Source: a virus (taxonomy: Duplodnaviria; Heunggongvirae; Uroviricota; Caudoviricetes). Taken from it: a DNA stretch of 10,110 bases. A program made the position numbers and the translations under genes. The notes under the pieces were generated by a model. The model was not told the origin of the DNA, made no database searches, and saw only the letters and a list, made by a program, of their open reading frames with translations. Below, piece after piece: positions 250 to 8,808 of the stretch (within the stretch, counting starts at the first letter, position 1; every line of letters begins with the position of its first letter). The DNA lies in IMG/VR virus record IMGVR_UViG_3300010280_000146, one strand, 5' to 3'.

Positions 250-285
250 GACGGTATTACCTTAAAGGTATACTCTCATACCGTC
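250..285. promoter_or_regulatory. Inverted repeat GACGGTA...TACCGTC enclosing a TTACC-N5-GGTAT operator-like site (257-271) upstream of int
   Basis: Arms at 250-256 and 279-285 are exact reverse complements; the inner 15-mer TTACCTTAAAGGTAT matches the palindrome found in the other promoter regions at 9 of 10 half-site positions. Confidence 0.35.
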
Positions 286-313
286 ATGAAAATGGTTTCT
301 ATACGGGTGAATT

Positions 314-1564
314 GTGCTTACCGATACAAAATTAAAAAACCTCAAGCCGCAGGACAAACTGTACAAGGTCTCCGATCGTGACGGGCTGTATGTAGCTGTT
401 CTTACGTCAGGCACGGTCTCGTTTCGCTACGACTACCGTATCAACGGTCGCCGCGAAACGCTGGTAATCGGGCAGTATGGGCGTGACGGTATCAGCCTGG
501 CAGAAGCGCGAGAAGAACTGATTGCTGCAAAGAAGTTGCTTAAAGCAGGCCAGTCACCGGCTGCGGCTAAACGTGACGGTATCAAAAAGATTCGTGGTGC
601 TGAGACGTTTGCGGTACATACCGACAGTTATATGAAACACGTCATCCTGGCTGAAAGTACCCGCGCAATGAAGCAGGCAGTGATCGACCGTGACATACTT
701 CCTGTTCTTGGCAACAAAATGATGGCTGAAATTACCACATCGATGGTTCGTGATTTGTGTGACCGGATTGTCGAACGCGGTGGCCGGGCAACAGCAGTGC
801 AGGCCAGGGAGATCATCAGCAGCGTATACCGTCACGCCAATGACCGTGGTCATGGTTTGTTTAATCCTGCAGCTGACATTAAACCTTCGTCTATCGCCAT
901 ATTTAAACCACGAGAGCGAACACTGACACCAGAAGAAATTGGCCTGTTCTTCCGCACGTTGGATGCCATTGGTGCTATGGGCACTATGAAAATGGCTTTA
1001 AAGCTGGTGCTTATCACTATGGTTCGTAAAGGCGAATTCACCAATGCAACGTGGGATGAAATAGATTTTAAAAAATGGACATGGACAATTCCTTCAGACC
1101 GCATGAAGGGAAGCCGGGCGCACGTTATTTACCTGCCTAAACAGGCACAGGATATATTGGTCGGGTTGCAGATGTGCGCTGGTGGAAGTGAATATCTGGT
1201 TCCTGGTCGTTACAATTTCCGGAAGCCATTATCTAATGCCGCGCTGAACTCTCTGATCGACAGAACGGTGAAAATAATAAATGAAGATGGTGAGCATATT
1301 CAGGACTTCACTGTACATGATATGCGCCGTACAGCCAGTACATTGTTGCATGAGGCTGGTTATCCTTCAGACTGGATTGAAAAGGCTCTGGCACATGAGC
1401 AGAAAGGTGTGCGCGCCGTATATAACAAAGCGGAATACGCTAGACAGCGCGCCTACATGTTGCAGCAGTGGGCCGATATGATTGATTCCTGGATTAACGG
1501 GGATCATACGGATCTGATTCCGTTCTCCCCGTCGAAGTTTGAGAAGTGGATGGCGGGGGAATAA
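314..1564 (+). CDS. int: Tyrosine recombinase / phage integrase, P4-type (N-terminal arm-binding DUF4102-like domain plus catalytic domain)
   Basis: 416-aa ORF with GTG start. N-terminus LTDTKLKNLKP...LYVAVLTSGTVSFRYDYRINGRRETLVIGQYG is typical of P4-like integrase arm-binding domains; C-terminal HDMRRT (HxxR box) and VRAVYNKAEY (catalytic Tyr region). Sits next to a host gene 3' end. Confidence 0.9.
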   Translation: MLTDTKLKNLKPQDKLYKVSDRDGLYVAVLTSGTVSFRYDYRINGRRETLVIGQYGRDGISLAEAREELIAAKKLLKAGQSPAAAKRDGIKKIRGAETFAVHTDSYMKHVILAESTRAMKQAVIDRDILPVLGNKMMAEITTSMVRDLCDRIVERGGRATAVQAREIISSVYRHANDRGHGLFNPAADIKPSSIAIFKPRERTLTPEEIGLFFRTLDAIGAMGTMKMALKLVLITMVRKGEFTNATWDEIDFKKWTWTIPSDRMKGSRAHVIYLPKQAQDILVGLQMCAGGSEYLVPGRYNFRKPLSNAALNSLIDRTVKIINEDGEHIQDFTVHDMRRTASTLLHEAGYPSDWIEKALAHEQKGVRAVYNKAEYARQRAYMLQQWADMIDSWINGDHTDLIPFSPSKFEKWMAGE

Positions 1565-1567
1565 CGT

Positions 1568-1762
1568 TTAATTATTCTGCTGATTTTCTTCCATCTCGGC
1601 TTCTGCTGCCAGTGATTCAATTTTATCTGCGAATATTGCTGACAGTGTTGCAAATTCAGCATCAGTGACAGCGGGAACAGGAACAAACCTGATCCCGCTG
1701 TGTGCAAGCATGTTTGCAGTTTCAAGGCATTTCCTTAAATCTGCTGGTGATGCCCTGTTCAT
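1568..1762 (-). CDS. Small hypothetical protein (64 aa), translationally coupled to the upstream methyltransferase gene
   Basis: Internal ATG of track ORF 1568..1882 at 1762..1760 forms an ATGA overlap with the methyltransferase stop (1761..1759). Product MNRASPADLRKCLETANMLAHSGIRFVPVPAVTDAEF... has an acidic tail. The track's N-terminal extension overlaps the methyltransferase in another frame and is rejected. Confidence 0.5.
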   Translation of the reverse strand: MNRASPADLRKCLETANMLAHSGIRFVPVPAVTDAEFATLSAIFADKIESLAAEAEMEENQQNN

Positions 1763-2409
1763 GCTGCACGCTCCCGTCCCTGGTTGTCTGTTGGTGACAG
1801 AGGAGCATTGCTGAATGCATTTGTTAATCCGCCAATATACAACGCGTATCCTGGGTGTAGTTGCACGGCCGGGTCTTCGCACTGATTACCCCAAACATCG
1901 AAGCCATGAGACGACTGGCGGGCGAACAGTTCAATGCGAGAAACATCGCCTAACAATTGCACAAGTTTTTCACGAACGATATCTGGTTTTCTTGAATGCT
2001 CAAGCCGCGGTGCGGTAAATGACTGAACGATCCCTGCATTAATGCGCGGAGGTAGTTTTCCCTTAACTGCAAACAGGCAATCTTCACTATTGGCGCGAGT
2101 CATGTGTCCCATACCCATAACCAGTTTATCTGGTTGTCGACTACCACATTTTATCCACGTGAAGCCCTTCATGGTCATCAGACGGAATCCCCAGGCTTCA
2201 ACAACTTTTAGCGCTTCGAGTGGTTGTGTTGGCACCCACCACATGGCCAACAGACAGTTTTCATCGGCCAAATCCCACACAGGAAGGCGGCAGATATCCA
2301 GCACACTCATAACCGGATATTTAAAACCGGCACCGCGATTACCATCTGCGGCTTTGTCCCGGTATACCCAGGGTGGATCTGCATAGATTAGTGTGTATTT
2401 CTTAGTCAT
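1759..2409 (-). CDS. MT-A70 family DNA N6-adenine methyltransferase (phage Dam-like, orphan)
   Basis: 216-aa ORF starting MTKKYTLIYADPPWVY; the DPPW catalytic motif near the N-terminus is characteristic of MT-A70-type amino-methyltransferases. No adjacent restriction endonuclease gene is visible. Confidence 0.85.
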   Translation of the reverse strand: MTKKYTLIYADPPWVYRDKAADGNRGAGFKYPVMSVLDICRLPVWDLADENCLLAMWWVPTQPLEALKVVEAWGFRLMTMKGFTWIKCGSRQPDKLVMGMGHMTRANSEDCLFAVKGKLPPRINAGIVQSFTAPRLEHSRKPDIVREKLVQLLGDVSRIELFARQSSHGFDVWGNQCEDPAVQLHPGYALYIGGLTNAFSNAPLSPTDNQGRERAA

Positions 2410-2701
2410 AAACCACCCCGCAACATCCTATACCGCTATAGTCGCCACGGCGAAGGCCGTTACCTTTTGTGATACATTGGTCCCTGCGAACCGCGATCCT
2501 TGCACGCTCAACATCACCAGAAGCAACATCCATACACTGAAGCCAAAGGTGAGCGGCAATGCGGAACTGCCCTTTTTTTTCTCTTTCAATCGCGCGTTTT
2601 TCGATCTCTATCGCCGCAGGAGTAACGGCGACAATCTTTGACGGACTGCGCATTGAAACCTTATTCATGTGATATTTTTCAAGTCGGCTTAACTTTCTCA
2701 C
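2402..2701 (-). CDS. Hypothetical protein; start uncertain (GTG 2701, ATG 2668 or ATG 2653)
   Basis: ORF ends in an 8-nt overlap with the methyltransferase start (GTTTATGACTAA), suggesting coupling. Charged region AIEIEKRAIEREKKGQFRIAAHLWLQ looks protein-like but the C-terminus is low complexity. No family recognised. Confidence 0.4.
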   Translation of the reverse strand: MRKLSRLEKYHMNKVSMRSPSKIVAVTPAAIEIEKRAIEREKKGQFRIAAHLWLQCMDVASGDVERARIAVRRDQCITKGNGLRRGDYSGIGCCGVVYD

Positions 2702-2810
2702 TTAATCCAACCCTCTCTGAAAATTAATGCCAGCAGATAAAGCCATGCTGAAACAGAGGCCAGGAATAAGTACCATCCTGACCATTTGCTCCAGTGCCTT
2801 AGCAGCGCAC

Positions 2811-3059
2811 TCATGCAGCGTTGCTCACGGGACGATATACACGTTGCTGAACAGGAGGTTTTTTACCCTGGAACTCTGCTGGGCTTGCTGCCTGACGTTC
2901 ATCAAGCCAACGTTCAACTTCATCACGGTTCCATGCGCAGCGTTTATCGGTGATATACCAGCGTTTGGGAAATTCCCCTGCGCGCTCCATACGGTCGATA
3001 GTGCTCCATGACAGTGGCACCACCGCCAGGAGTTCCTTCTTACCTAATGCACCTTTCAT
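2811..3059 (-). CDS. AlpA/Xis-like excisionase-family DNA-binding protein (MerR-type HTH)
   Basis: 82 aa; LSWSTIDRMERAGEFPKRWYITDKRCAWNRDEVERWLDE fits the AlpA/excisionase HTH_17 pattern (STIYR...G.FP.P......W...E...WL). RBS AGAGG lies 6 nt upstream of ATG 3059. Confidence 0.75.
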   Translation of the reverse strand: MKGALGKKELLAVVPLSWSTIDRMERAGEFPKRWYITDKRCAWNRDEVERWLDERQAASPAEFQGKKPPVQQRVYRPVSNAA

Positions 3060-3081
3060 AAATACCTCTTTTGGTTGCAGT

Positions 3082-3100
3082 GCGGCGCGCGTGGCGCCGC
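3082..3100 (-). other. All-GC stem-loop in the bet/xis intergenic region (candidate RNA processing or stability element, not a canonical terminator)
   Basis: GCGGCGC (3082-3088) / GCGCCGC (3094-3100) with 5-nt loop GCGTG. On the transcribed minus strand it sits 9 nt after the bet stop and just upstream of the xis-like RBS, with no U-run after it. Confidence 0.4.
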
Positions 3101-3108
3101 GGTGGTGG

Positions 3109-3990
3109 TTACATAGATGTTTCGTTTAATTCTTCCCGACGAACGCTGTAAACGTCGGTGGCTTTTGCCAGCAGTTCGTCATCATCTGAAAGTTTTTGTG
3201 CAATGTATTTGTAAGCCTTATCCAGTTCGGAGACAGTGCTGTAATTCATCGCTGCGCTGGTAAAGGCCATCAGCATTTCTTCTGGATCACGGCTATCCGC
3301 TTTACGCGTTTGCTCATCAGGCTTTTTCACTGGTTTAGCGTTGATCAGACTGTTCATTCCCGCAGCAGTGGTCGTTTGCGGAGTAATGTCTCGCTCAACG
3401 CGCGGTGCCGTTTCCTGTAATTCGTCTGGGGTGTAAACACCGAGAAGTACATCAGGAGCGTGCAGGCGAGCCCATCGTTTCGTGCAAAGATAGGCAAGTT
3501 GCTGGCGCGGATCCTGTTCCCACAATGGAGAGTTACGCACTCCGGCTTGCGCCATACTGATGGTAAGCTCACGGGGTTCTGCTTCTCCTTTAAGAACTGC
3601 TGACACAGTTACCGTCAGATTCGGTGATTTATCTGTTTTGCCGTTAACATTCGACCAGTCACCGCTCCAGCGATAATTCAGGCGTGTCGCTAGCAGGCTG
3701 GAAGAGGATACGACCGCGTTTACCAACTGTGCTTCGTAGCCTAACGTTCCGTTTACCACATGCGTTTTCTGCGCCACGGCGAAAGGGTTCATTCCCCACT
3801 GTGCCGCCTGCATGGTCACCGCCAGGCAATCGGCAGGTTTGCCTTCAAGATGTTTCGGTACAGTCGCTTTGCTTTGTGACATCAACTCCGCGAAACGCAC
3901 CAGTTGATTCATGCCATCGGGGCTGAAGATTGCCGCAGCAGTGCCCACAGTTGCGCCTGGTTGTGATGTGATTGCGATATCATTGCTCAT
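3109..3990 (-). CDS. Bet/RecT-superfamily single-strand annealing protein (lambda Bet-like recombinase)
   Basis: 293 aa; segments MQAAQWGMNPF, NSPLWEQDP...RWARLHAPDVLLGVYTPDE and ERDITP parallel lambda Bet motifs (QYGLNPW, TGPWQSHP...QCARLAFGFAGIYDKDE, ERDITP) as recalled from memory. ATGA overlap with the upstream exonuclease gene. Confidence 0.85.
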   Translation of the reverse strand: MSNDIAITSQPGATVGTAAAIFSPDGMNQLVRFAELMSQSKATVPKHLEGKPADCLAVTMQAAQWGMNPFAVAQKTHVVNGTLGYEAQLVNAVVSSSSLLATRLNYRWSGDWSNVNGKTDKSPNLTVTVSAVLKGEAEPRELTISMAQAGVRNSPLWEQDPRQQLAYLCTKRWARLHAPDVLLGVYTPDELQETAPRVERDITPQTTTAAGMNSLINAKPVKKPDEQTRKADSRDPEEMLMAFTSAAMNYSTVSELDKAYKYIAQKLSDDDELLAKATDVYSVRREELNETSM

Positions 3991-4808
3991 ACGTACATAT
4001 CCTGTTTACGTGCCCAGTCAGGGCGTTTAATAATTTCCACTCCGCCCCATTCATCGTTGATGCGGCATTCGTGGTAGGTATTCAGATCCCGGCGGAACAG
4101 AGCGTGCCCGGCATCGACATCTGGCGCATCCAGCTCGAACACGCGTACCGGATACCGACCACAATCAATGCTTTCGCTCACGGCAAGAAAGAAAAAACCA
4201 TGCGGCTGACCAGTAACCCTCATTGCGCCTTCGCGGTACATTGCGTCCTGCACGTGGTAGCGGAATTCCTCGATGTGGCGTGCAAAACGGTCCATATCCG
4301 CAACCTTTTTCACGTCGACGATCACGTTGTGCTCGTTCAGCCATTTGTCTGGACGAATTCGGCACAACTCACCCGTTTCTTCATCGTTCCAGTACATTGA
4401 TGCTTCGCAGTAACCAGGTGCTTCCAACATCCAGCGTGCCGCCGGATGAGCCATTGCGCTATCACGCATCAGCTCCAGTTTTCGCCACTGCTCGACATCA
4501 AGTACCGCAATACCCATATCCGTCACATCACGAAGAAATGCTTCTTCGTCAGCTTTACCTTGTTTTGTCCGACGATCGAATTTCGGTGAAACGATGAAGC
4601 GTTTGTCGAATTCTCCAGGTTCCAGAAGCAGGCAGTGCAATGCGGTTCCCATATCCAGTGCAGAATTTTTCTCTTCGTCTTCTGGTGCTGCCTGAATCCA
4701 TTTAAGAAGCGCCGGATTCTTGGCAACCATGTCCAGTTGCGACTTACTCACGCCGTCACCGGCGTGGTAGTCTTCGTTGCTGATGTCGAAATAAATTCCC
4801 GGTTTCAT
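3987..4808 (-). CDS. RecE-like PD-(D/E)XK exonuclease (exodeoxyribonuclease VIII-like; partner of the annealing protein)
   Basis: 273 aa; N-terminal GIYFDISNEDYH and the nuclease core RIRPDKW...VIVDVKKV (D...D/E-x-K) plus YHVQDAMY resemble RecE C-terminal-domain-type nucleases; directly upstream of and coupled to the Bet-like gene. Confidence 0.8.
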   Translation of the reverse strand: MKPGIYFDISNEDYHAGDGVSKSQLDMVAKNPALLKWIQAAPEDEEKNSALDMGTALHCLLLEPGEFDKRFIVSPKFDRRTKQGKADEEAFLRDVTDMGIAVLDVEQWRKLELMRDSAMAHPAARWMLEAPGYCEASMYWNDEETGELCRIRPDKWLNEHNVIVDVKKVADMDRFARHIEEFRYHVQDAMYREGAMRVTGQPHGFFFLAVSESIDCGRYPVRVFELDAPDVDAGHALFRRDLNTYHECRINDEWGGVEIIKRPDWARKQDMYV

Positions 4809-5104
4809 GCCGCGTCCCTCTGCCCATCAAGCTGATCTGCCAGATCCCAGCGGGCGATAATTGCCATTGCCTCTCGCCGGTAGGCATCCATTAGTTCTTC
4901 GAACTCAGGGCTGTCTTTAGCGGCCTCCAGTACTTCCTGGCGAACGCCTTTGCCTGTTACAACGTCGAAAGTTGAGGCCAGTTGATGAAGTCGGATGCTC
5001 TCAATCAGTTCAACTTGTCGGTCATATAGCTGTTCTGACAGGCGGTAGTCCTTGTCGAACGCCAGCATGATTTTTTGAAGATTTTTCTGCTGATTAACGT
5101 TCAT
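4805..5104 (-). CDS. Hypothetical protein (99 aa) first-in-line upstream of the exonuclease gene; function unknown
   Basis: Track ORF 4805..5119; preferred start is ATG 5104 because GGGAGG sits 7 nt upstream. ATGA overlap with the exonuclease start at 4805-4808. Product MNVNQQKNLQKIMLAFDKDYRLSEQLYDRQVELIESIRLHQ..., no family recognised. Confidence 0.6.
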   Translation of the reverse strand: MNVNQQKNLQKIMLAFDKDYRLSEQLYDRQVELIESIRLHQLASTFDVVTGKGVRQEVLEAAKDSPEFEELMDAYRREAMAIIARWDLADQLDGQRDAA

Positions 5105-5106
5105 TA

Positions 5107-5259
5107 TCAGCCCTCCCATATCTCGTTATCGTTGGCCACATCGCGAGCTTCTTTGCTGACGAAAGCCCACTTAATGCCTTCCTGTAAGGTGCGGAACTTC
5201 CAGCTCATGAATCCGCATGCAGTAACACAGTACCAACCGTTGATAATTTTCCACTGCAT
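5107..5259 (-). CDS. Unannotated small ORF (50 aa, Trp/Cys-rich) at the head of the leftward operon
   Basis: Hand-translated: ATG at 5259..5257 to TGA at 5109..5107 gives MQWKIINGWYCVTACGFMSWKFRTLQEGIKWAFVSKEARDVANDNEIWEG. Its stop is 2 nt from the next start (TGAtaATG) and its 3' end carries that gene's RBS. Below the 60-aa track cutoff. Confidence 0.35.
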   Translation of the reverse strand: MQWKIINGWYCVTACGFMSWKFRTLQEGIKWAFVSKEARDVANDNEIWEG

Positions 5260-5278
5260 AACTTGTTACCTCGGTCTG

Positions 5279-5293
5279 TTACCGTTGAGGTAA
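5279..5293. promoter_or_regulatory. Operator-like palindrome TTACC GTTGA GGTAA (leftward early promoter region, site 1)
   Basis: Perfect 5-bp inverted half-sites with a 5-bp spacer; overlaps the putative -10 and start-site region of the leftward promoter. Confidence 0.45.
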
Positions 5294-5321
5294 TAATTAT
5301 GCGTATCTGGTTTGATGTCAA
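5293..5321 (-). promoter_or_regulatory. Putative pL-like sigma70 promoter for the leftward recombination operon
   Basis: Minus-strand -35 TTGACA (plus 5316-5321, perfect consensus), 17-bp spacer, -10 AATTAT (plus 5293-5298); flanked by the two palindromic sites. Confidence 0.4.
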
Positions 5322-5340
5322 TAGATATGAGTTAAAAAAA

Positions 5341-5355
5341 TTACCCGTTAGGTAA
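5341..5355. promoter_or_regulatory. Operator-like palindrome TTACC CGTTA GGTAA (leftward early promoter region, site 2)
   Basis: Perfect inverted half-sites; centre is 62 bp from the centre of site 5279-5293. Confidence 0.45.
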
Positions 5356-5365
5356 TCGAATAGGC

Positions 5366-5390
5366 AATAAAAAAGCCGCCATAAGGCGGC
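5366..5390 (-). terminator. Rho-independent terminator of the repressor-candidate gene
   Basis: On the minus strand: stem GCCGCC / GGCGGC with loop TTAT followed by TTTTTATTG, 23 nt downstream of the stop at 5413-5415. Confidence 0.6.
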
Positions 5391-5412
5391 TTACTTACTG
5401 AAAAATATGATT

Positions 5413-5997
5413 TTATTGTTTGTTTTTTTCGTTCTGGTTGATGACAAATTCAATGTAACTTTCGATCTTTGCCTTCTCTGTTTCAGGTAACAATGCGTAG
5501 CGCGAGCGGTCATAGTTGATAGTTGCAGGGTCATGCGGATGAATCAGTAGTTCATATCCGTGACGCCCGAATGCAGATGCAACATTCTCCAGGGTGGAAA
5601 TGGAAACGCTGACCTCATTGTTTAACAGGCGGCTTATTGTCACCTGGGCGACGCCGGATGCGCGGTGAAGTTTTCCCTGAGTTGAAAGGTCGCGGCTTTC
5701 ACTCATCCAGCGTTCCAGGTTGTGAGCTGCCAGCTGACCAATGTCGCTTGGGCCGACAGGCTGAAAACCTTCCTGAGAAAGCGAGCGATCGATATCAAGC
5801 CAGTTACGGGGTTTATTGGCGGCAGCTTCAATTTTTCGCGCAACCTGGTCGCCGATAACCTTCTTGCCAAGAGCCCAGCGGTTTACCAGATTTGCCTGAG
5901 TTCCAAGTTTTTCTGCCATCCGCGTCTGAACACCATTGAATTCACGGTCGATCAAGTCGTTGAGATTTTGCCTGCGGACGTCCTGGATACTTTTCAT
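5413..5997 (-). CDS. Tandem helix-turn-helix (two XRE-type HTH domains) transcriptional regulator; candidate prophage repressor
   Basis: 194 aa. First HTH around GVQTRMAEKLGTQANLVNRWALGKKVIGDQVARKIEAA, second around LHRASGVAQVTISRLLNNEVSVSISTLENVASAF. No LexA/S24 peptidase motifs seen. Placed like cI, divergent from a Cro-like gene, with its own terminator. Confidence 0.75.
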   Translation of the reverse strand: MKSIQDVRRQNLNDLIDREFNGVQTRMAEKLGTQANLVNRWALGKKVIGDQVARKIEAAANKPRNWLDIDRSLSQEGFQPVGPSDIGQLAAHNLERWMSESRDLSTQGKLHRASGVAQVTISRLLNNEVSVSISTLENVASAFGRHGYELLIHPHDPATINYDRSRYALLPETEKAKIESYIEFVINQNEKNKQ

Positions 5998-6052
5998 TTT
6001 CTGGAAAATCGCCTCATATATGAATCAGTAGATGATTCAATTTAAAGCAATA

Positions 6053-6067
6053 TTACCCAACAGGTAA
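6053..6067. promoter_or_regulatory. Operator-like palindrome TTACC CAACA GGTAA (divergent promoter region, site 1)
   Basis: Perfect inverted half-sites between the repressor-candidate start (5997) and the Cro-like start (6152). Confidence 0.45.
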
Positions 6068-6069
6068 AT

Positions 6070-6084
6070 GCACCCCATAGGTAA
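6070..6084. promoter_or_regulatory. Degenerate operator-like site GCACC CCATA GGTAA (divergent promoter region, site 2)
   Basis: Right half-site perfect, left half-site 3 of 5; centre 17 bp from site 1. Confidence 0.3.
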
Positions 6085-6090
6085 CTATCC

Positions 6091-6127
6091 TTGATTTTTG
6101 TTACCTTATGGGTGAATATTTATTATC
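6091..6127 (+). promoter_or_regulatory. Putative pR-like promoter for the Cro-like gene (element assignment ambiguous)
   Basis: Candidate -35 TTGATT (6091-6096) or TTGTTA (6099-6104) with -10 TATTAT (6121-6126, 16-bp spacer from the latter); overlaps operator-like site 3. Confidence 0.3.
6101..6115. promoter_or_regulatory. Operator-like site TTACC TTATG GGTGA (divergent promoter region, site 3)
   Basis: Left half-site perfect, right half-site 4 of 5; overlaps the candidate rightward promoter. Confidence 0.35.
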
Positions 6128-6151
6128 TGAAATAAATATCAGGCAATAGCT

Positions 6152-6382
6152 ATGAGCGATAACGGACATTTCGATTTCAAAAAGCACTGGCTTGCACTTA
6201 CTCCGGATGAGCGTGAAGCCTTCGCACAGGAAGCCGGAACGACGAGTCACTATATCCAGACTCACTTAACAGGTAAGCGCAAAATGCCAGGTAAGGTATT
6301 GATGAATGGGCTTTTTAAAGCCTGTAAAACAAGACAATGGCTGCGCTCAAAAGCGGAACTGGCATACTTCTTCTACTCATGA
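6152..6382 (+). CDS. Cro/YdaS-like small HTH regulator
   Basis: 76 aa; LTPDEREAFAQEAGTTSHYIQTHLTGKRKMPGKVLMNGLFKACK fits Cro/CI-type and YdaS-like HTH proteins. Divergent from the repressor candidate and followed by a terminator. Confidence 0.7.
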   Translation: MSDNGHFDFKKHWLALTPDEREAFAQEAGTTSHYIQTHLTGKRKMPGKVLMNGLFKACKTRQWLRSKAELAYFFYS

Positions 6383-6403
6383 TATCTGGCAACAACCCTC
6401 TGT

Positions 6404-6427
6404 AGACCGCCATCCGGCGGTCTTTTC
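6404..6427 (+). terminator. Rho-independent terminator directly after the Cro-like gene
   Basis: Stem AGACCGCC (6404-6411) / GGCGGTCT (6416-6423), loop ATCC, then a short T-run (6424-6426). Confidence 0.55.
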
Positions 6428-6437
6428 ATATCTATTC

Positions 6438-6452
6438 GTACCTCAAAGGTAA
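6438..6452. promoter_or_regulatory. Operator-like site GTACC TCAAA GGTAA upstream of the replication operon
   Basis: 9 of 10 half-site positions match TTACC/GGTAA; lies between the cro terminator and the 66-aa gene, followed by a TTGATA -35-like hexamer at 6470-6475. Confidence 0.3.
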
Positions 6453-6532
6453 TAAAAAACCAAATCTGGTTGATATTTTTTTTGTGTCAGCACAAAATAA
6501 CCGTAATCCCAATACTAATAACAGGGCTTACC

Positions 6533-6733
6533 ATGGAAATCATTACACGTATTGATGCCGCAAAGCGCGGACTTAAACGCTACTACACCGGAAAACCATG
6601 TAAGCACGGACATGACAGTGAACGCTGGGTTTACAACGGACACTGTGTTGAGTGCACCATGGAATCAAACCGTCGCATCAGGGCAGAGATTAAGCAGATC
6701 ATGATTAATTCCTCCCCACAACATTCAAGCTGA
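6533..6733 (+). CDS. Small Cys/His-containing (putative zinc-binding) protein at the cII-equivalent position
   Basis: Preferred internal ATG 6533 of track ORF 6470..6733. 66 aa, MEIITRIDAAKRGLKRYYTGKPCKHGHDSERWVYNGHCVECT..., with a C-x-H-x-H ... C-x-x-C arrangement. The track's upstream extension is hydrophobic and lies in promoter DNA. Confidence 0.55.
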   Translation: MEIITRIDAAKRGLKRYYTGKPCKHGHDSERWVYNGHCVECTMESNRRIRAEIKQIMINSSPQHSS

Positions 6734-6748
6734 TAGCGGAGATTAATC

Positions 6749-7564
6749 ATGAGCAGACATGCAACAGATTGGGCCTGGGAGACAGATCCAGGTAGCTCGT
6801 CATTAAAGCTCATACTGCTCTCGATGGCTGACAGAGCCGATGAATATAACCTCTGCTACCCCAGCATAGAACGCCTCGTTAAAGACACTTGTCTGAATAA
6901 AAAAACCGTGCAGGCCGGGCTTATATCGCTCATGAAAATGGGGCTTATTTCAGATACCGGAGAGAGAAAGGGAGCGACAAAAAGAGTGCGGGTTTTCTCT
7001 CTTAATATAACCAAAAACGGGAACATTAAAGGCAACCGGGAGGGGGGCAATGAACCCGAAAACGGTAATGTTACCGAAAACGGGAATATACCCAAAAACG
7101 GGATGTTGAATGATCCCAAAAACGGGATGTTGAATGATCCCAAAAACGGGATCCAGAACCAGTCATATAACCGGTCATTTAACCAAGAGAGGGAGAGCAG
7201 GACAAAAAACGGGGATTCTGTGTCTCATGACCCCGGCGCAAACAACGCCGTGATGAATAACTTTGTTCCTCCTGGTGGGCCAGGGCAATTAGGCAAATTT
7301 GTCATGCATGAACAATGGCAGCCATCAGATGACTTTCTTCGGAAAAGCTCATTGCAGGGAATCTACCTGGATAGTCTGCCAACGGCACAGGAACTTGCAG
7401 AGTTCAGAATTTACTGGATGGCTGAGGGTAAGGCATACCATCAGGCACAGTGGGAGCAGAAGCTGGCAAGGCGGCTGCAGATTAGCAGACAGAAGCAATC
7501 AACATTACCTGATAACAACGTTCCGCACTGGAACAGCCCTGAAGCGTGGGAGGATTTCTTGTGA
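6749..7564 (+). CDS. Replication initiator (O-like): N-terminal winged-HTH domain, Asn/Gly-rich repeat linker, C-terminal DnaT-like domain
   Basis: 271 aa. N-terminus MSRHATDWAWE...LKLILLSMADRADE...SIERLVKDTCLNKKTVQAGLISLMKMGLIS (HTH_36-like). C-terminus WQPSDDFLRKSSLQGIYLDSLPTAQELAEFRIYWMAEGKAYHQAQWEQKLARRLQISRQ closely parallels the E. coli DnaT C-terminal region (WQPDADF...[29 protein letters not shown], recalled). RBS GGAG 8 nt upstream. Confidence 0.85.
   Translation: MSRHATDWAWETDPGSSSLKLILLSMADRADEYNLCYPSIERLVKDTCLNKKTVQAGLISLMKMGLISDTGERKGATKRVRVFSLNITKNGNIKGNREGGNEPENGNVTENGNIPKNGMLNDPKNGMLNDPKNGIQNQSYNRSFNQERESRTKNGDSVSHDPGANNAVMNNFVPPGGPGQLGKFVMHEQWQPSDDFLRKSSLQGIYLDSLPTAQELAEFRIYWMAEGKAYHQAQWEQKLARRLQISRQKQSTLPDNNVPHWNSPEAWEDFL
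7011..7150 (+). repeat. Iteron-like direct repeats inside the O-like gene (candidate origin of replication)
   Basis: Six copies of the core C(C)nAAAACGG(G) at 7011, 7055, 7075, 7091, 7115 and 7139, including two exact 24-bp tandem units CCCAAAAACGGGATGTTGAATGAT (7091-7114, 7115-7138); they encode the repeated NGMLNDPK linker. Confidence 0.6.
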
Positions 7565-8346
7565 ACAACGTTTTTACCGCGATACAAAACCGTGACGGAG
7601 AAGCCCTTTCTCGCATGTCAGGTTATGAGCATCAGTACACCAACAATGACAACGTGGTGAACATGTCAGCAGAGAGGCTTGTTGATGCCCTTTTCAAACA
7701 GCTGAAACAACTGTTTCCGGCGGCAGTGGTAACCAACCTGAAGACGCCAGAGCAGGAAGTTGCTGCAAAACAGCAGTGGATTGCTGCGTTTGCCGAAGGG
7801 GGGATCCGAACCCGTGAACAGGTTTCTGCTGGTATGCGCCACGCCCGCGCCAGTGAATCTCCGTTCTGGCCGTCGCCAGGGCAATTCATCAAGTGGTGTA
7901 AAGACAGCAAGATGGTTCTTGGCGTCACCATTGACGATGTGATGGCGGAGTTTCACCGGTACAGCAAGGAAAAAAGTTTATATCCTGGTGGTCCCGAAAG
8001 ATTCCCGTGGCGGCATCCGGTTATGTACTGGGTCGTATGTGATACCCGCCGTGCAATGTATCAGCGCCAGCTTAGCGAGATTGAGGTTGAGAAACACGCG
8101 CGCAGGCTGCTCGATGATTGGGCGAAAAAGGTGGCTTCCGGACAGCAGATACCCGATCCGGTGATCAGCATACAGGCAAAGCCAGAGCCCATGAGTACAC
8201 CTCCGGACACAGGGAGAGACGTTTACCATCCACCAGGGCGAAGTTTCGGGTGCATGCCTAACGCCGCCACTCTGGGGGGAATAACACCGGCGCAGTGGCT
8301 GATGGAGGAATACAGGCGGGGAAAGGCGGCAGGATTTATCAAGTAA
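7561..8346 (+). CDS. Lambda P-like replication protein (DnaB helicase loader)
   Basis: GTG 7561 with GGGAGG 7 nt upstream, overlapping the O-like stop (GTGA). FPAAVVTNLKTPEQEVAAKQQWIAAFAEGGIRTREQVSAGMRHARASESPFWPSPGQFIKWC parallels lambda P (FPASLANRDQNEVNEIRRQWVLAFRENGITTMEQVNAGMRVARRQNRPFLPSPGQFVAWC, recalled). The track start at 7546 is an alternative. Confidence 0.75.
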   Translation: MNNVFTAIQNRDGEALSRMSGYEHQYTNNDNVVNMSAERLVDALFKQLKQLFPAAVVTNLKTPEQEVAAKQQWIAAFAEGGIRTREQVSAGMRHARASESPFWPSPGQFIKWCKDSKMVLGVTIDDVMAEFHRYSKEKSLYPGGPERFPWRHPVMYWVVCDTRRAMYQRQLSEIEVEKHARRLLDDWAKKVASGQQIPDPVISIQAKPEPMSTPPDTGRDVYHPPGRSFGCMPNAATLGGITPAQWLMEEYRRGKAAGFIK

Positions 8347-8383
8347 TACCAGCGCGATAGCGCATTTTTTTACGCCTTGATAA

Positions 8384-8398
8384 TTACCTTTTGGGTAA
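8384..8398. promoter_or_regulatory. Operator-like palindrome TTACC TTTTG GGTAA downstream of the P-like gene
   Basis: Perfect inverted half-sites in the AT-rich intergenic region 8347-8463. Confidence 0.4.
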
Positions 8399-8445
8399 TA
8401 AAGTATTCTAAACTCTATTGATTTCGTGTCTTATGTGGTTTTTAA

Positions 8446-8460
8446 TTACCTCAGGGGTAA
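8446..8460. promoter_or_regulatory. Operator-like palindrome TTACC TCAGG GGTAA abutting the DUF1064 gene start
   Basis: Perfect inverted half-sites ending 3 nt before ATG 8464 and overlapping the likely RBS; centre 62 bp from site 8384-8398. Confidence 0.4.
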
Positions 8461-8463
8461 ATC

Positions 8464-8808
8464 ATGAGAAAACAGATACAGGCTCTTGGTCGACTCAAAA
8501 CAGGCCAGATGAACAAAACAGAATCTGCGTATTGCCAGCACCTTGAGCTGCGTAAACGTGCAGGAGAAATCGTCTGGTATCGATTTGAGGGTATCAAGCT
8601 GCGGTTAGCTGACAACACGTTCTATACGCCCGATTTTGCTGTGATGCTCGCCACCGGCGAGATGGAACTGCACGAAGTGAAAGGTTTCTGGACCGACGAC
8701 GCCAGGGTGAAAACCAAAGTCGCCGCAGATCAGTATCCGTTCCGAATCATCGGGGTAACGGTTAAACCAAAGAAAGCAGGTGGTGGCTGGAACATCGAAG
8801 AGTTCTGA
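8464..8808 (+). CDS. DUF1064-family phage protein (nuclease-like fold, function unknown)
   Basis: 114 aa; NKTESAYCQHLELRKRAGEIVWYRFEGIKLRL...YTPDFAVMLATGEMELHEVKGFWTDDARVKTKVAADQYP fits the DUF1064 pattern as recalled. Confidence 0.65.
   Translation: MRKQIQALGRLKTGQMNKTESAYCQHLELRKRAGEIVWYRFEGIKLRLADNTFYTPDFAVMLATGEMELHEVKGFWTDDARVKTKVAADQYPFRIIGVTVKPKKAGGGWNIEEF

Follow-up and report, generated by a model that had tools for sequence, protein, structure and literature searches.

The stretch of DNA considered here (the window: all 10,110 nucleotides of the caudoviricete virus record IMGVR_UViG_3300010280_000146, from the IMG/VR database) is a phiV10-like prophage (genus Uetakevirus, epsilon15-like podoviruses) integrated at guaA. 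It covers the early region, over which it is 98% identical to Escherichia phage phiV10, and from left to right it opens in the 3' end of guaA and continues with the integrase gene int, the leftward early genes, the repressor gene rep and a cro-like gene, after which come the replication genes and the opening genes of the following rightward operon. According to the gene map, which was carried over from phiV10, non-coding DNA amounts to 925 bases, or 9.1% of the window. The subject of this study is a 15-bp palindrome, TTACC-N5-GGTAA, which recurs in this small non-coding fraction and whose copies are probably the operators of the repressor Rep. The question concerns more than a single isolate, the rep/cro segment being found in 541 of 5426 complete E. 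coli genomes (about 10%).

An exact search recovered perfect copies of the palindrome at 5279, 5341, 6053, 8384 and 8446, against an expectation of 0.00 in 200 dinucleotide shuffles. If one mismatch is allowed, there are eight sites against 0.20 expected, the additional ones being 257 (right half GGTAT), 6101 (GGTGA) and 6438 (left half GTACC); if two are allowed, there are eleven against 3.0, so that the two-mismatch site at 6070 (GCACC...GGTAA) is not significant taken alone. All eight sites with at most one mismatch are wholly non-coding (positional p = 4.9e-9), and so is 6070; the matches in coding sequence are two two-mismatch sites (4756 and 6262), which is the chance level. A first-pass annotation of this DNA had already claimed five perfect and four near-perfect copies, all located between genes, with no full copy in coding sequence. 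The five perfect copies were recovered at the same positions, nine of the nine sites do lie in the non-coding 9.1%, and coding sequence contains nothing better than the two sites just mentioned. The places named by that annotation (before int, in the gap between p39 and rep, in the gap between rep and the cro-like gene, past the terminator at 6404-6423, and before the DUF1064 gene) are right as well, and its proviso that the motif should be rarer in coding and shuffled DNA agrees with the frequencies given above (0.00 perfect copies and 0.20 copies with at most one mismatch in shuffles). Its "near-perfect" class, however, has to be divided, since 257, 6101 and 6438 have one mismatch and 6070 has two.

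The motif is also present, and in part already annotated, in relatives of this prophage. The GenBank record of epsilon15 (AY150271.2) marks seven copies of the identical palindrome, in the form ATTACC-N5-GGTAAT, as "protein_bind: repressor / lysogeny", at coordinates that coincide with the matches of our scan. The annotated sites have sequences such as ATTACCATTTTGGTAAT, ATTACCTTTTGGGTAAT and ATTACCAAAAGGGTAAT; their places include the leftward early promoter PL, the gap before the gene that follows the replication genes, the upstream regions of terS and of the head operon, and the gap separating the tailspike gene from the ant homologue. The opinion of the first-pass annotation that this is not a known operator therefore has to be abandoned, the epsilon15 record having marked it as repressor-binding at syntenic positions, and for the same reason the observation, correct in itself, is largely an ordinary one. 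The phiV10 record carries no operator annotation; the study of the sister phage ZX5, whose Rep is identical, predicts promoters and describes no operator sequence (PMC9782041), and text searches of the literature for descriptions of the operators returned secondary mentions only.

Extending the scan to complete genomes, we found 14 sites with at most one mismatch in phiV10, 15 in epsilon15, 18 in SPC32H, 15 in Enterobacter phage Tyrion and 13 in Klebsiella phage BUCT711, where 0.4-0.8 would be expected per genome. These sites occupy about ten intergenic regions per genome, and they also occur upstream of the terminase/packaging, portal/head, tail-fibre and lysis genes. Checked against the annotation tables, the perfect copies in the five phages are non-coding and syntenic in 47 cases out of 47, a count for which the terS start of phiV10 was moved to 122 by homology and an open reading frame (ORF) lying over the PL operators of Tyrion was set aside as spurious. 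The two annotations concerned deserve a remark of their own: the annotated terS start of phiV10, at 41, puts operators 87 and 105 inside the coding sequence (CDS), whereas homology with epsilon15 and Tyrion gives a start at 122; and the Tyrion ORF "gp39" (34059-34271) overlies both the PL operators and the promoter, and is probably an annotation error too. The window itself shows the syntenic placement, with paired operators at PL and again after the replication genes, three sites in the rep-cro gap and a single one before int. Six prophages (of Superficieibacter, Erwinia dacicola, Klebsiella, two Citrobacter species and Scandinavium) have this motif in this arrangement around their Rep homologues, again with every perfect copy in non-coding DNA, so that conservation in related prophages, which the first-pass annotation proposed to check, is found at the same places in five phages and six prophages. 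Its broader suggestion of one repressor acting on many transcription units, beyond the OL/OR pair of lambda, agrees with the 13-18 sites predicted in the genomes of these relatives.

Natural variation within the sites points in the same direction. A scan of IMG/VR with the Rep alignment returned only loci with 100% identical Rep, too close for distant comparison, and we used 80 of these loci, which differ in their intergenic DNA, to measure polymorphism. The half-site columns are variable in 6% of cases (mean minor-allele fraction 0.006) and the spacer columns in 60% (0.123), to be compared with 22% (0.025) for other intergenic columns and 7% (0.0035) for flanking coding columns. This contrast between half-sites and spacer is the pattern that would be expected of a dimeric helix-turn-helix (HTH) site with an uncontacted centre. 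Site by site, the half-sites of OL1 are near-invariant among 57 natural variants (positions 5282 and 5283 each deviate in one variant), those of OL2 are invariant while four of its five spacer positions are polymorphic at 12% or more, OR1 is invariant in 18 variants, and site 8384 combines half-sites invariant in 62 variants with a highly polymorphic spacer. Deviant bases are fixed as well (GC at 6070-6071 and G at 6114), OR2 having invariant half-sites, its deviant GC included, around a spacer that varies. As an aside, the 5-bp spacers (for instance 5346-5350 and 8389-8393) are the most polymorphic class of intergenic positions; perhaps they are simply the only neutral positions, other possibilities being that operator affinity is tuned through them or that the operators act as joints for recombination.

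The candidate reader of these sites is the product of rep. It matches the crystallised Rep of phage SPC32H (PDB 5D50) with E = 4e-42 across residues 1-190 of 194 (phmmer), and a Pfam search gave HTH_3 at residues 106-147, a weak YdaS-like HTH at 21-61, and no Peptidase_S24 domain. The Rep of SPC32H is described as a tetramer that binds palindromic sites through its N-terminal domains (PMC9638917; PMC9986798). DNA binding is placed in the N-terminal domain, dimerisation in an HTH-like middle domain, and tetramerisation together with binding of the antirepressor Ant in the C-terminal domain, and a review considers that this mechanism of repression has not been extensively characterised (PMC9986798). 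The "tandem HTH" protein of the first-pass annotation is thus tandem as far as its sequence goes, but in the homologue only the N-terminal domain binds DNA, the second HTH-like domain being used to dimerise (PMC9986798). The helix NLVNRW of Rep (residues 36-41) is invariant in five genera, while the phiV10-type and epsilon15-type proteins are only about 43% identical overall; among the hydrophobic C-terminal positions involved in tetramerisation, at least one Phe (F184) is invariant. Taking together the motif, its placement and conservation, and the homology of the adjoining protein, we estimate at about 85% the probability that the palindromes are operators of the prophage repressor Rep.

At two places, PL and the region before the DUF1064/RuvC gene, an alignment of ten lineages reveals one and the same module, composed of an operator, about 19 bp, the element CTATTGA (-35), 17 bp, the -10 hexamer and a second operator, with the last T of the -10 hexamer serving as the first T of the second operator (Table 1). 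The paired operators are centred near +1 and -62, and the distance between their centres is 62 bp in 152 of 155 pairs from IMG/VR loci and 61-63 bp in all other lineages; over at least ten lineages it thus stays within 1 bp, while the sequence between the operators has diverged. The -35 element of PL, CTATTGAC, is kept in 10 lineages together with its spacing. Before the DUF1064 gene, the promoter scan offers TTGATA-16-TAAAGT as an alternative. Its -35 lacks conservation, so it is unlikely to be the main promoter; the conserved CTATTGA points to 8418-8446. We have nevertheless retained both readings as candidates. The downstream operator of this pair (8446-8460) includes the Shine-Dalgarno sequence of the DUF1064 gene and ends 3 nt before its ATG. 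A third, degenerate module is found past the cro terminator, where the lone upstream operator 6438 stands at about -60 from TTGATA-17-CAAAAT (6470-6498), both hexamers of which are conserved (GGTTGAT(A/C) and (C/T)AAAAT are kept in five phages); a search for 62-bp partners of sites 257 and 6438 yielded only a weak half-site. In the rep-cro gap, every lineage has OR1, 2 bp, OR2, a conserved TTGATT and OR3, the last always imperfect in one half. The three sites of the window are spaced 17 and 31 bp apart and 6101 is the weakest of them; the position of OR2 carries a perfect, syntenic copy in epsilon15, SPC32H and BUCT711. The "five promoter regions" of the first-pass annotation can be kept in the sense that the consensus promoter matches are conserved across genera, but they are not mapped transcription starts.

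Table 1. Operator-like sites, promoter-like sites, terminator-like hairpins and genes of the window discussed in the text.
Feature	Position	Strand	Basis
Operator-like site before int, TTACCTTAAAGGTAT, one mismatch	257..271	.	Search with at most one mismatch; conservation
int (integrase gene)	314..1564	+	ORF; phiV10p31
OL1, perfect copy, abuts PL -10, centre near +1	5279..5293	.	Exact search, promoter scan, lineage alignment
PL promoter-like site TTGACA-17-AATTAT, 10/12	5293..5321	-	Best promoter match of the window
OL2, perfect copy 62 bp upstream of OL1, centre near -62	5341..5355	.	Exact search, lineage alignment
Terminator-like hairpin after rep	5373..5392	-	Terminator-like match; annotated in phiV10
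rep, 194-aa repressor, SPC32H Rep homologue	5413..5997	-	phmmer against PDB 5D50
OR1, perfect copy	6053..6067	.	Exact search; lineage alignment
OR2, two-mismatch copy (GCACC...GGTAA), 17 bp from OR1	6070..6084	.	Two-mismatch search; synteny
Candidate core promoter PR, read as TTGTTA-17-TATTAT (6098-6126) or with the conserved -35 TTGATT (6091-6096)	6091..6126	+	
OR3, one-mismatch copy (GGTGA) within PR core promoter	6101..6115	.	One half degenerate in every lineage
Cro-like 76-aa regulator	6152..6382	+	phrog_35 "transcriptional repressor", E = 5.6e-13
Terminator-like hairpin after cro-like gene	6404..6423	+	Terminator-like match; phiV10 record
One-mismatch copy GTACC...GGTAA, centre about -60 from next promoter-like site	6438..6452	.	
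Promoter-like site TTGATA-17-CAAAAT before replication genes	6470..6498	+	
Alternative from promoter scan, TTGATA-16-TAAAGT, would place 8384 operator in promoter spacer	8377..8404		
Upstream operator of pair before DUF1064 gene, perfect copy	8384..8398	.	
Promoter-like site TTGATT-17-TTTAAT, read from conserved CTATTGA element	8418..8446	+	Ten-lineage conservation
Downstream operator of pair before DUF1064 gene, perfect copy, 62 bp from 8384	8446..8460	.	Overlaps -10 end and +1 region
DUF1064 gene, opens downstream operon	8464..8808	+	Pfam PF06356; phiV10p45

The motif, its placement, its conservation and the protein homologies were computed here, and from them we infer binding, occupancy, looping and promoter use in the following way. 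Each 15-bp site (17 bp if written ATTACC-N5-GGTAAT) would be read by a pair of Rep N-terminal HTH domains, one on each TTACC half-site, and the 5-bp spacer would be left uncontacted. Rep bound to the downstream operator at PL or before the DUF1064 gene would block RNA polymerase, because this operator abuts the -10 hexamer and covers the start, while the operator 62 bp upstream would probably be occupied by the second DNA-binding pair of that tetramer, so as to enclose the promoter in a small loop. As 62 bp corresponds to about 5.9 helical turns, the paired operators should be on the same face of the DNA; their arrangement around a promoter is consistent with looping by a Rep tetramer, and may be a feature that has not been described before. 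In the rep-cro gap, Rep at OR3 would occlude RNA polymerase within the PR core promoter, whereas OR1 and OR2 may also set the transcription of rep itself, and Rep at site 257, which overlaps a -10-like hexamer, would keep int silent in the lysogen. Because complete relatives have such sites ahead of their terminase, portal, tail-fibre and lysis genes as well, Rep appears to silence nearly every transcription unit directly, without a cascade. Release would come by way of a small LexA-controlled antirepressor, Ant, as in SPC32H. The ant gene lies outside the window, and what can be said about it comes from phiV10, where the region around 20543-20891 has a homologue of SPC32H Ant (p24, 88% identical) with a LexA box, CTGTataaatacACAG (CTGT-N8-ACAG), upstream of it. 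The gap with this box also contains a one-mismatch Rep operator (20877) facing the tail-fibre gene, and a perfect operator (20497) precedes a second antirepressor gene, of the Bro-N type.

Several points weigh against the assignment of the palindromes to Rep, or at least against its full extent. For this element, the link between Rep and the sites comes from sequence comparison, with binding and promoters being predicted. Conservation by itself cannot attribute the sites to Rep, because the HTH of the Cro-like protein is equally invariant and the two proteins co-occur. It is also clear that not all one-mismatch sites are functional, since SPC32H has five of them inside genes. Over the window as a whole, the scan gave 8 promoter-like matches, no excess over the 12.7 of the shuffles, and no convincing rep promoter was found on the minus strand in 5998-6052. 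Finally, the 62-bp spacing could in part be inherited from one promoter module that was duplicated, and not be maintained by looping.

The alternative that survives best is of limited scope: it supposes that the outlying copies are not transcriptional operators, site 257 being part of the attP arm architecture, and site 6438 an auxiliary or anchoring site, or a relic. Each of the two carries one mismatch. Site 257 lies between inverted 10-mers of the arm type recognised by the integrase Int (248-257 and 278-287), in a block conserved as a whole, and site 6438 is degenerate in every lineage (its left half is degenerate and its right half invariant in all of them, with a T/C polymorphism at 6439) and has no full partner at +1. 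On the other hand, both sites keep their half-sites across genera while their spacers change, 257 being maintained as TTACC-N5-GGTAT with a variable spacer in phiV10, epsilon15, SPC32H, Tyrion and BUCT711. The deviant base of 257 moreover coincides with a conserved -10-like hexamer (TATACT/TATAAT, 269-274), to which the last T of the site belongs, and 6438 occupies the same -60 place as the upstream operators of PL and of the DUF1064 gene, in DNA where about 0.05 sites would be expected by chance. We consider it unlikely that these two copies are something other than transcriptional operators.

A second alternative would reverse the roles of the two regulators: the palindromes would be mainly sites of the Cro-like protein, and Rep would bind other DNA or a subset of them. 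In favour of this, the Cro-like protein matches a family of phage proteins named "transcriptional repressor", its HTH segment AGTTSHYIQ.HLT is invariant across five genera, and in the phage collection it always co-occurs with Rep; furthermore, in lambda-type switches Cro and CI share their operators. What separates the two proteins is found in more distant phages. Pseudomonas phage PseuP_224 encodes a cI with a homologue of the Rep N-terminal domain, and has TTACC half-site palindromes (ATTACC-CGTA-GGTAAT and TTACC-TGTT-GGTAA) directly upstream of it, but no homologue of the Cro-like protein considered here was detectable in this phage. Psychrobacter phage pOW20-A has homologues of both proteins and repeats the three-site layout of the window: its ATACC-N5-GGTAT sites follow one another at 17 and 33 bp, and a -35-like TTGAC stands between the last two. 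More remote homologues of the N-terminal domain (Paraburkholderia, Hydrogenovibrio, Thiomicrospira), which have other recognition helices, were not found to be accompanied by TTACC-N5-GGTAA; this fits the idea that helix and site would change together, although the evidence is anecdotal. Because the two outliers fit and the homologues with a different helix are without the motif, we assign the sites to Rep. The annotators of epsilon15 also gave them to the repressor, and the Rep of SPC32H is reported to bind palindromic sites (PMC9638917). That the Cro-like protein is the main owner of the palindromes therefore seems quite improbable to us; it is likely, by analogy with lambda, that it also uses the OR sites, and such sharing is compatible with the assignment to Rep.

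The two outlier phages are of some interest in another respect. In both (pOW20-A 2858-2994, PseuP_224 2921-2975), the Rep N-terminal domain and the TACC/GGTA half-sites are joined to a different C-terminal half, which reads as S24-like (LexA-like) by eye, without a family search, and the spacers are N5 and N4, respectively. It appears from these sequences that Ant-controlled and autocleavable repressors exchange the DNA-binding module together with its operators.

A third possibility is that the motif belongs to a host transcription factor and was co-opted by the phage. In its favour, it persists among phages from at least seven enterobacterial genera, as would suit a conserved host protein. 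But the motif follows homologues of the Rep N-terminal domain out to Pseudomonas and Psychrobacter phages, with small changes of the site, it is densest around rep, as expected of an autoregulated immunity region, and we know of no E. coli regulator with a TTACC-N5-GGTAA consensus; we regard this proposal as very improbable. Lastly, the notion that the repeats are a chance or compositional feature of intergenic DNA, which is indeed AT-rich (37% GC), is refuted by the shuffles (five perfect copies where none are expected), by a first-order Markov simulation of AT-rich non-coding DNA (0.05 sites with at most one mismatch expected, eight found) and by the syntenic conservation of sites with variable spacers. 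We also considered the motif as a hairpin, a terminator or another RNA element and rejected this, because a stem of only 5 bp would be too weak and the actual terminators lie elsewhere.

If the palindromes are operators of Rep, the closest known system is that of epsilon15, whose repressor (gp38) sites are annotated in AY150271.2 (Kropinski et al. 2007, Virology 369:234). The two share the identical palindrome, in syntenic positions at PL and after the replication genes, and a homologous adjoining repressor. They differ in that the Rep of the window is only 43% identical to gp38, PL has three operators in epsilon15 and two in the window, the OR2 of the window has decayed to GCACC, and the mismatch of OR3 is in the opposite half-site. 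SPC32H, whose Rep-Ant switch (PDB 5D50 and 5D4Z) was reportedly described by Kim and Ryu (2013, J Virol) and Kim et al. (2016, PNAS), resembles the window in the full-length homology of Rep, in the motif and layout of its operators, and in that the Rep of the window has no S24 autocleavage domain; phiV10, for its part, has the Ant homologue with its LexA box. Here the differences are an overall Rep identity of about 42-43% and the position of ant outside the window.

The likeness to lambda lies in the divergent repressor and cro-like genes with three operators between them (6053, 6070 and 6101), one of which is weak, in a second operator cluster at the leftward early promoter, and in two-fold symmetric sites of similar size, for which cooperative pairing is plausible. 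In contrast with lambda, the Rep of the window is unrelated in its C-terminal half, lacks S24 and is not RecA-cleavable; its PL has a pair split by 62 bp that flanks the promoter, where lambda has three adjacent sites; operators are found beyond OL and OR (257, 6438, 8384, 8446, and late-gene regions in complete relatives); and the proposed loop would be local, at about 62 bp, to be compared with 2.4 kb between OL and OR in lambda. Repression at many dispersed places is known from C1 of phage P1 and gp71 of mycobacteriophage L5, which have a dozen or more sites across the genome and silence many units directly. The 13-18 sites per genome in the five relatives are comparable in this respect; however, the sites of P1 and L5 are asymmetric, and the stoperators of L5 act within transcribed regions in one orientation, whereas those of the window are symmetric palindromes in intergenic promoter regions, and the proteins are unrelated.

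Some other features of the window may be mentioned. Its left edge (1-124) contains the 3' end of host guaA with the attachment (att) core attgagtgggaatgatt at about 108-124, a core that has been reported for the sister phage ZX5 (PMC9782041); as the window opens in guaA and includes this core, its left end is the prophage's attL junction. The 10-mer GTGACGGTAT occurs five times with at most one mismatch in and near the 5' part of int, at 248-257, 278-287, 483-492, 573-582 and 826-835 (0.43 expected), and the record of epsilon15 marks the homologous copies as integrase-binding (arm-type) sites. Since two inverted copies bracket 257-271, Rep and Int might compete or cooperate there. Iteron-like repeats (18 bp x 2.8, and 24 bp x 2.6, the latter 100% identical) are found at 7054-7152, inside the DnaT-like replication gene, and are probably, by analogy with the O gene of lambda, the replication origin. 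Finally, RecT (3109-3990) and the exonuclease (3987-4808) are encoded by separate ORFs with a 4-nt overlap, where the phiV10 record has a single fused CDS, "recET", of 1761 nt. The discrepancy comes from a frameshift difference, or else from an artefact of annotation or sequencing on one side.

The novelty of these results is low, the motif and its multi-site layout being already annotated in the type phage and the repressor family structurally characterised, and they leave current ideas on phage immunity unchanged. What they might add is the conservation of the 62-bp pairing and the sharing of a single operator specificity by phages of many host genera. Tentatively, one may go further and imagine that a single Rep tetramer clamps both operators of a pair in a promoter loop of about six turns, and that the whole genus forms one immunity group, with divergence confined to the Ant-binding half of Rep; a single immunity group is suggested because neither the half-sites nor the recognition helices of the two regulators vary between E. 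coli, Klebsiella, Salmonella, Enterobacter, Citrobacter and Erwinia. This scenario as a whole seems to us possible rather than probable. In practical terms, the map of sites is transferable to hundreds of prophages, neither the phiV10 record nor the ZX5 study giving operators, and the direct silencing of almost every promoter, if it is as predicted, bears on the engineering of phiV10-type reporter phages. For the repressor family itself, the 62-bp pairing offers a handle on how the unusual "trans" tetramer of SPC32H-type repressors engages DNA.

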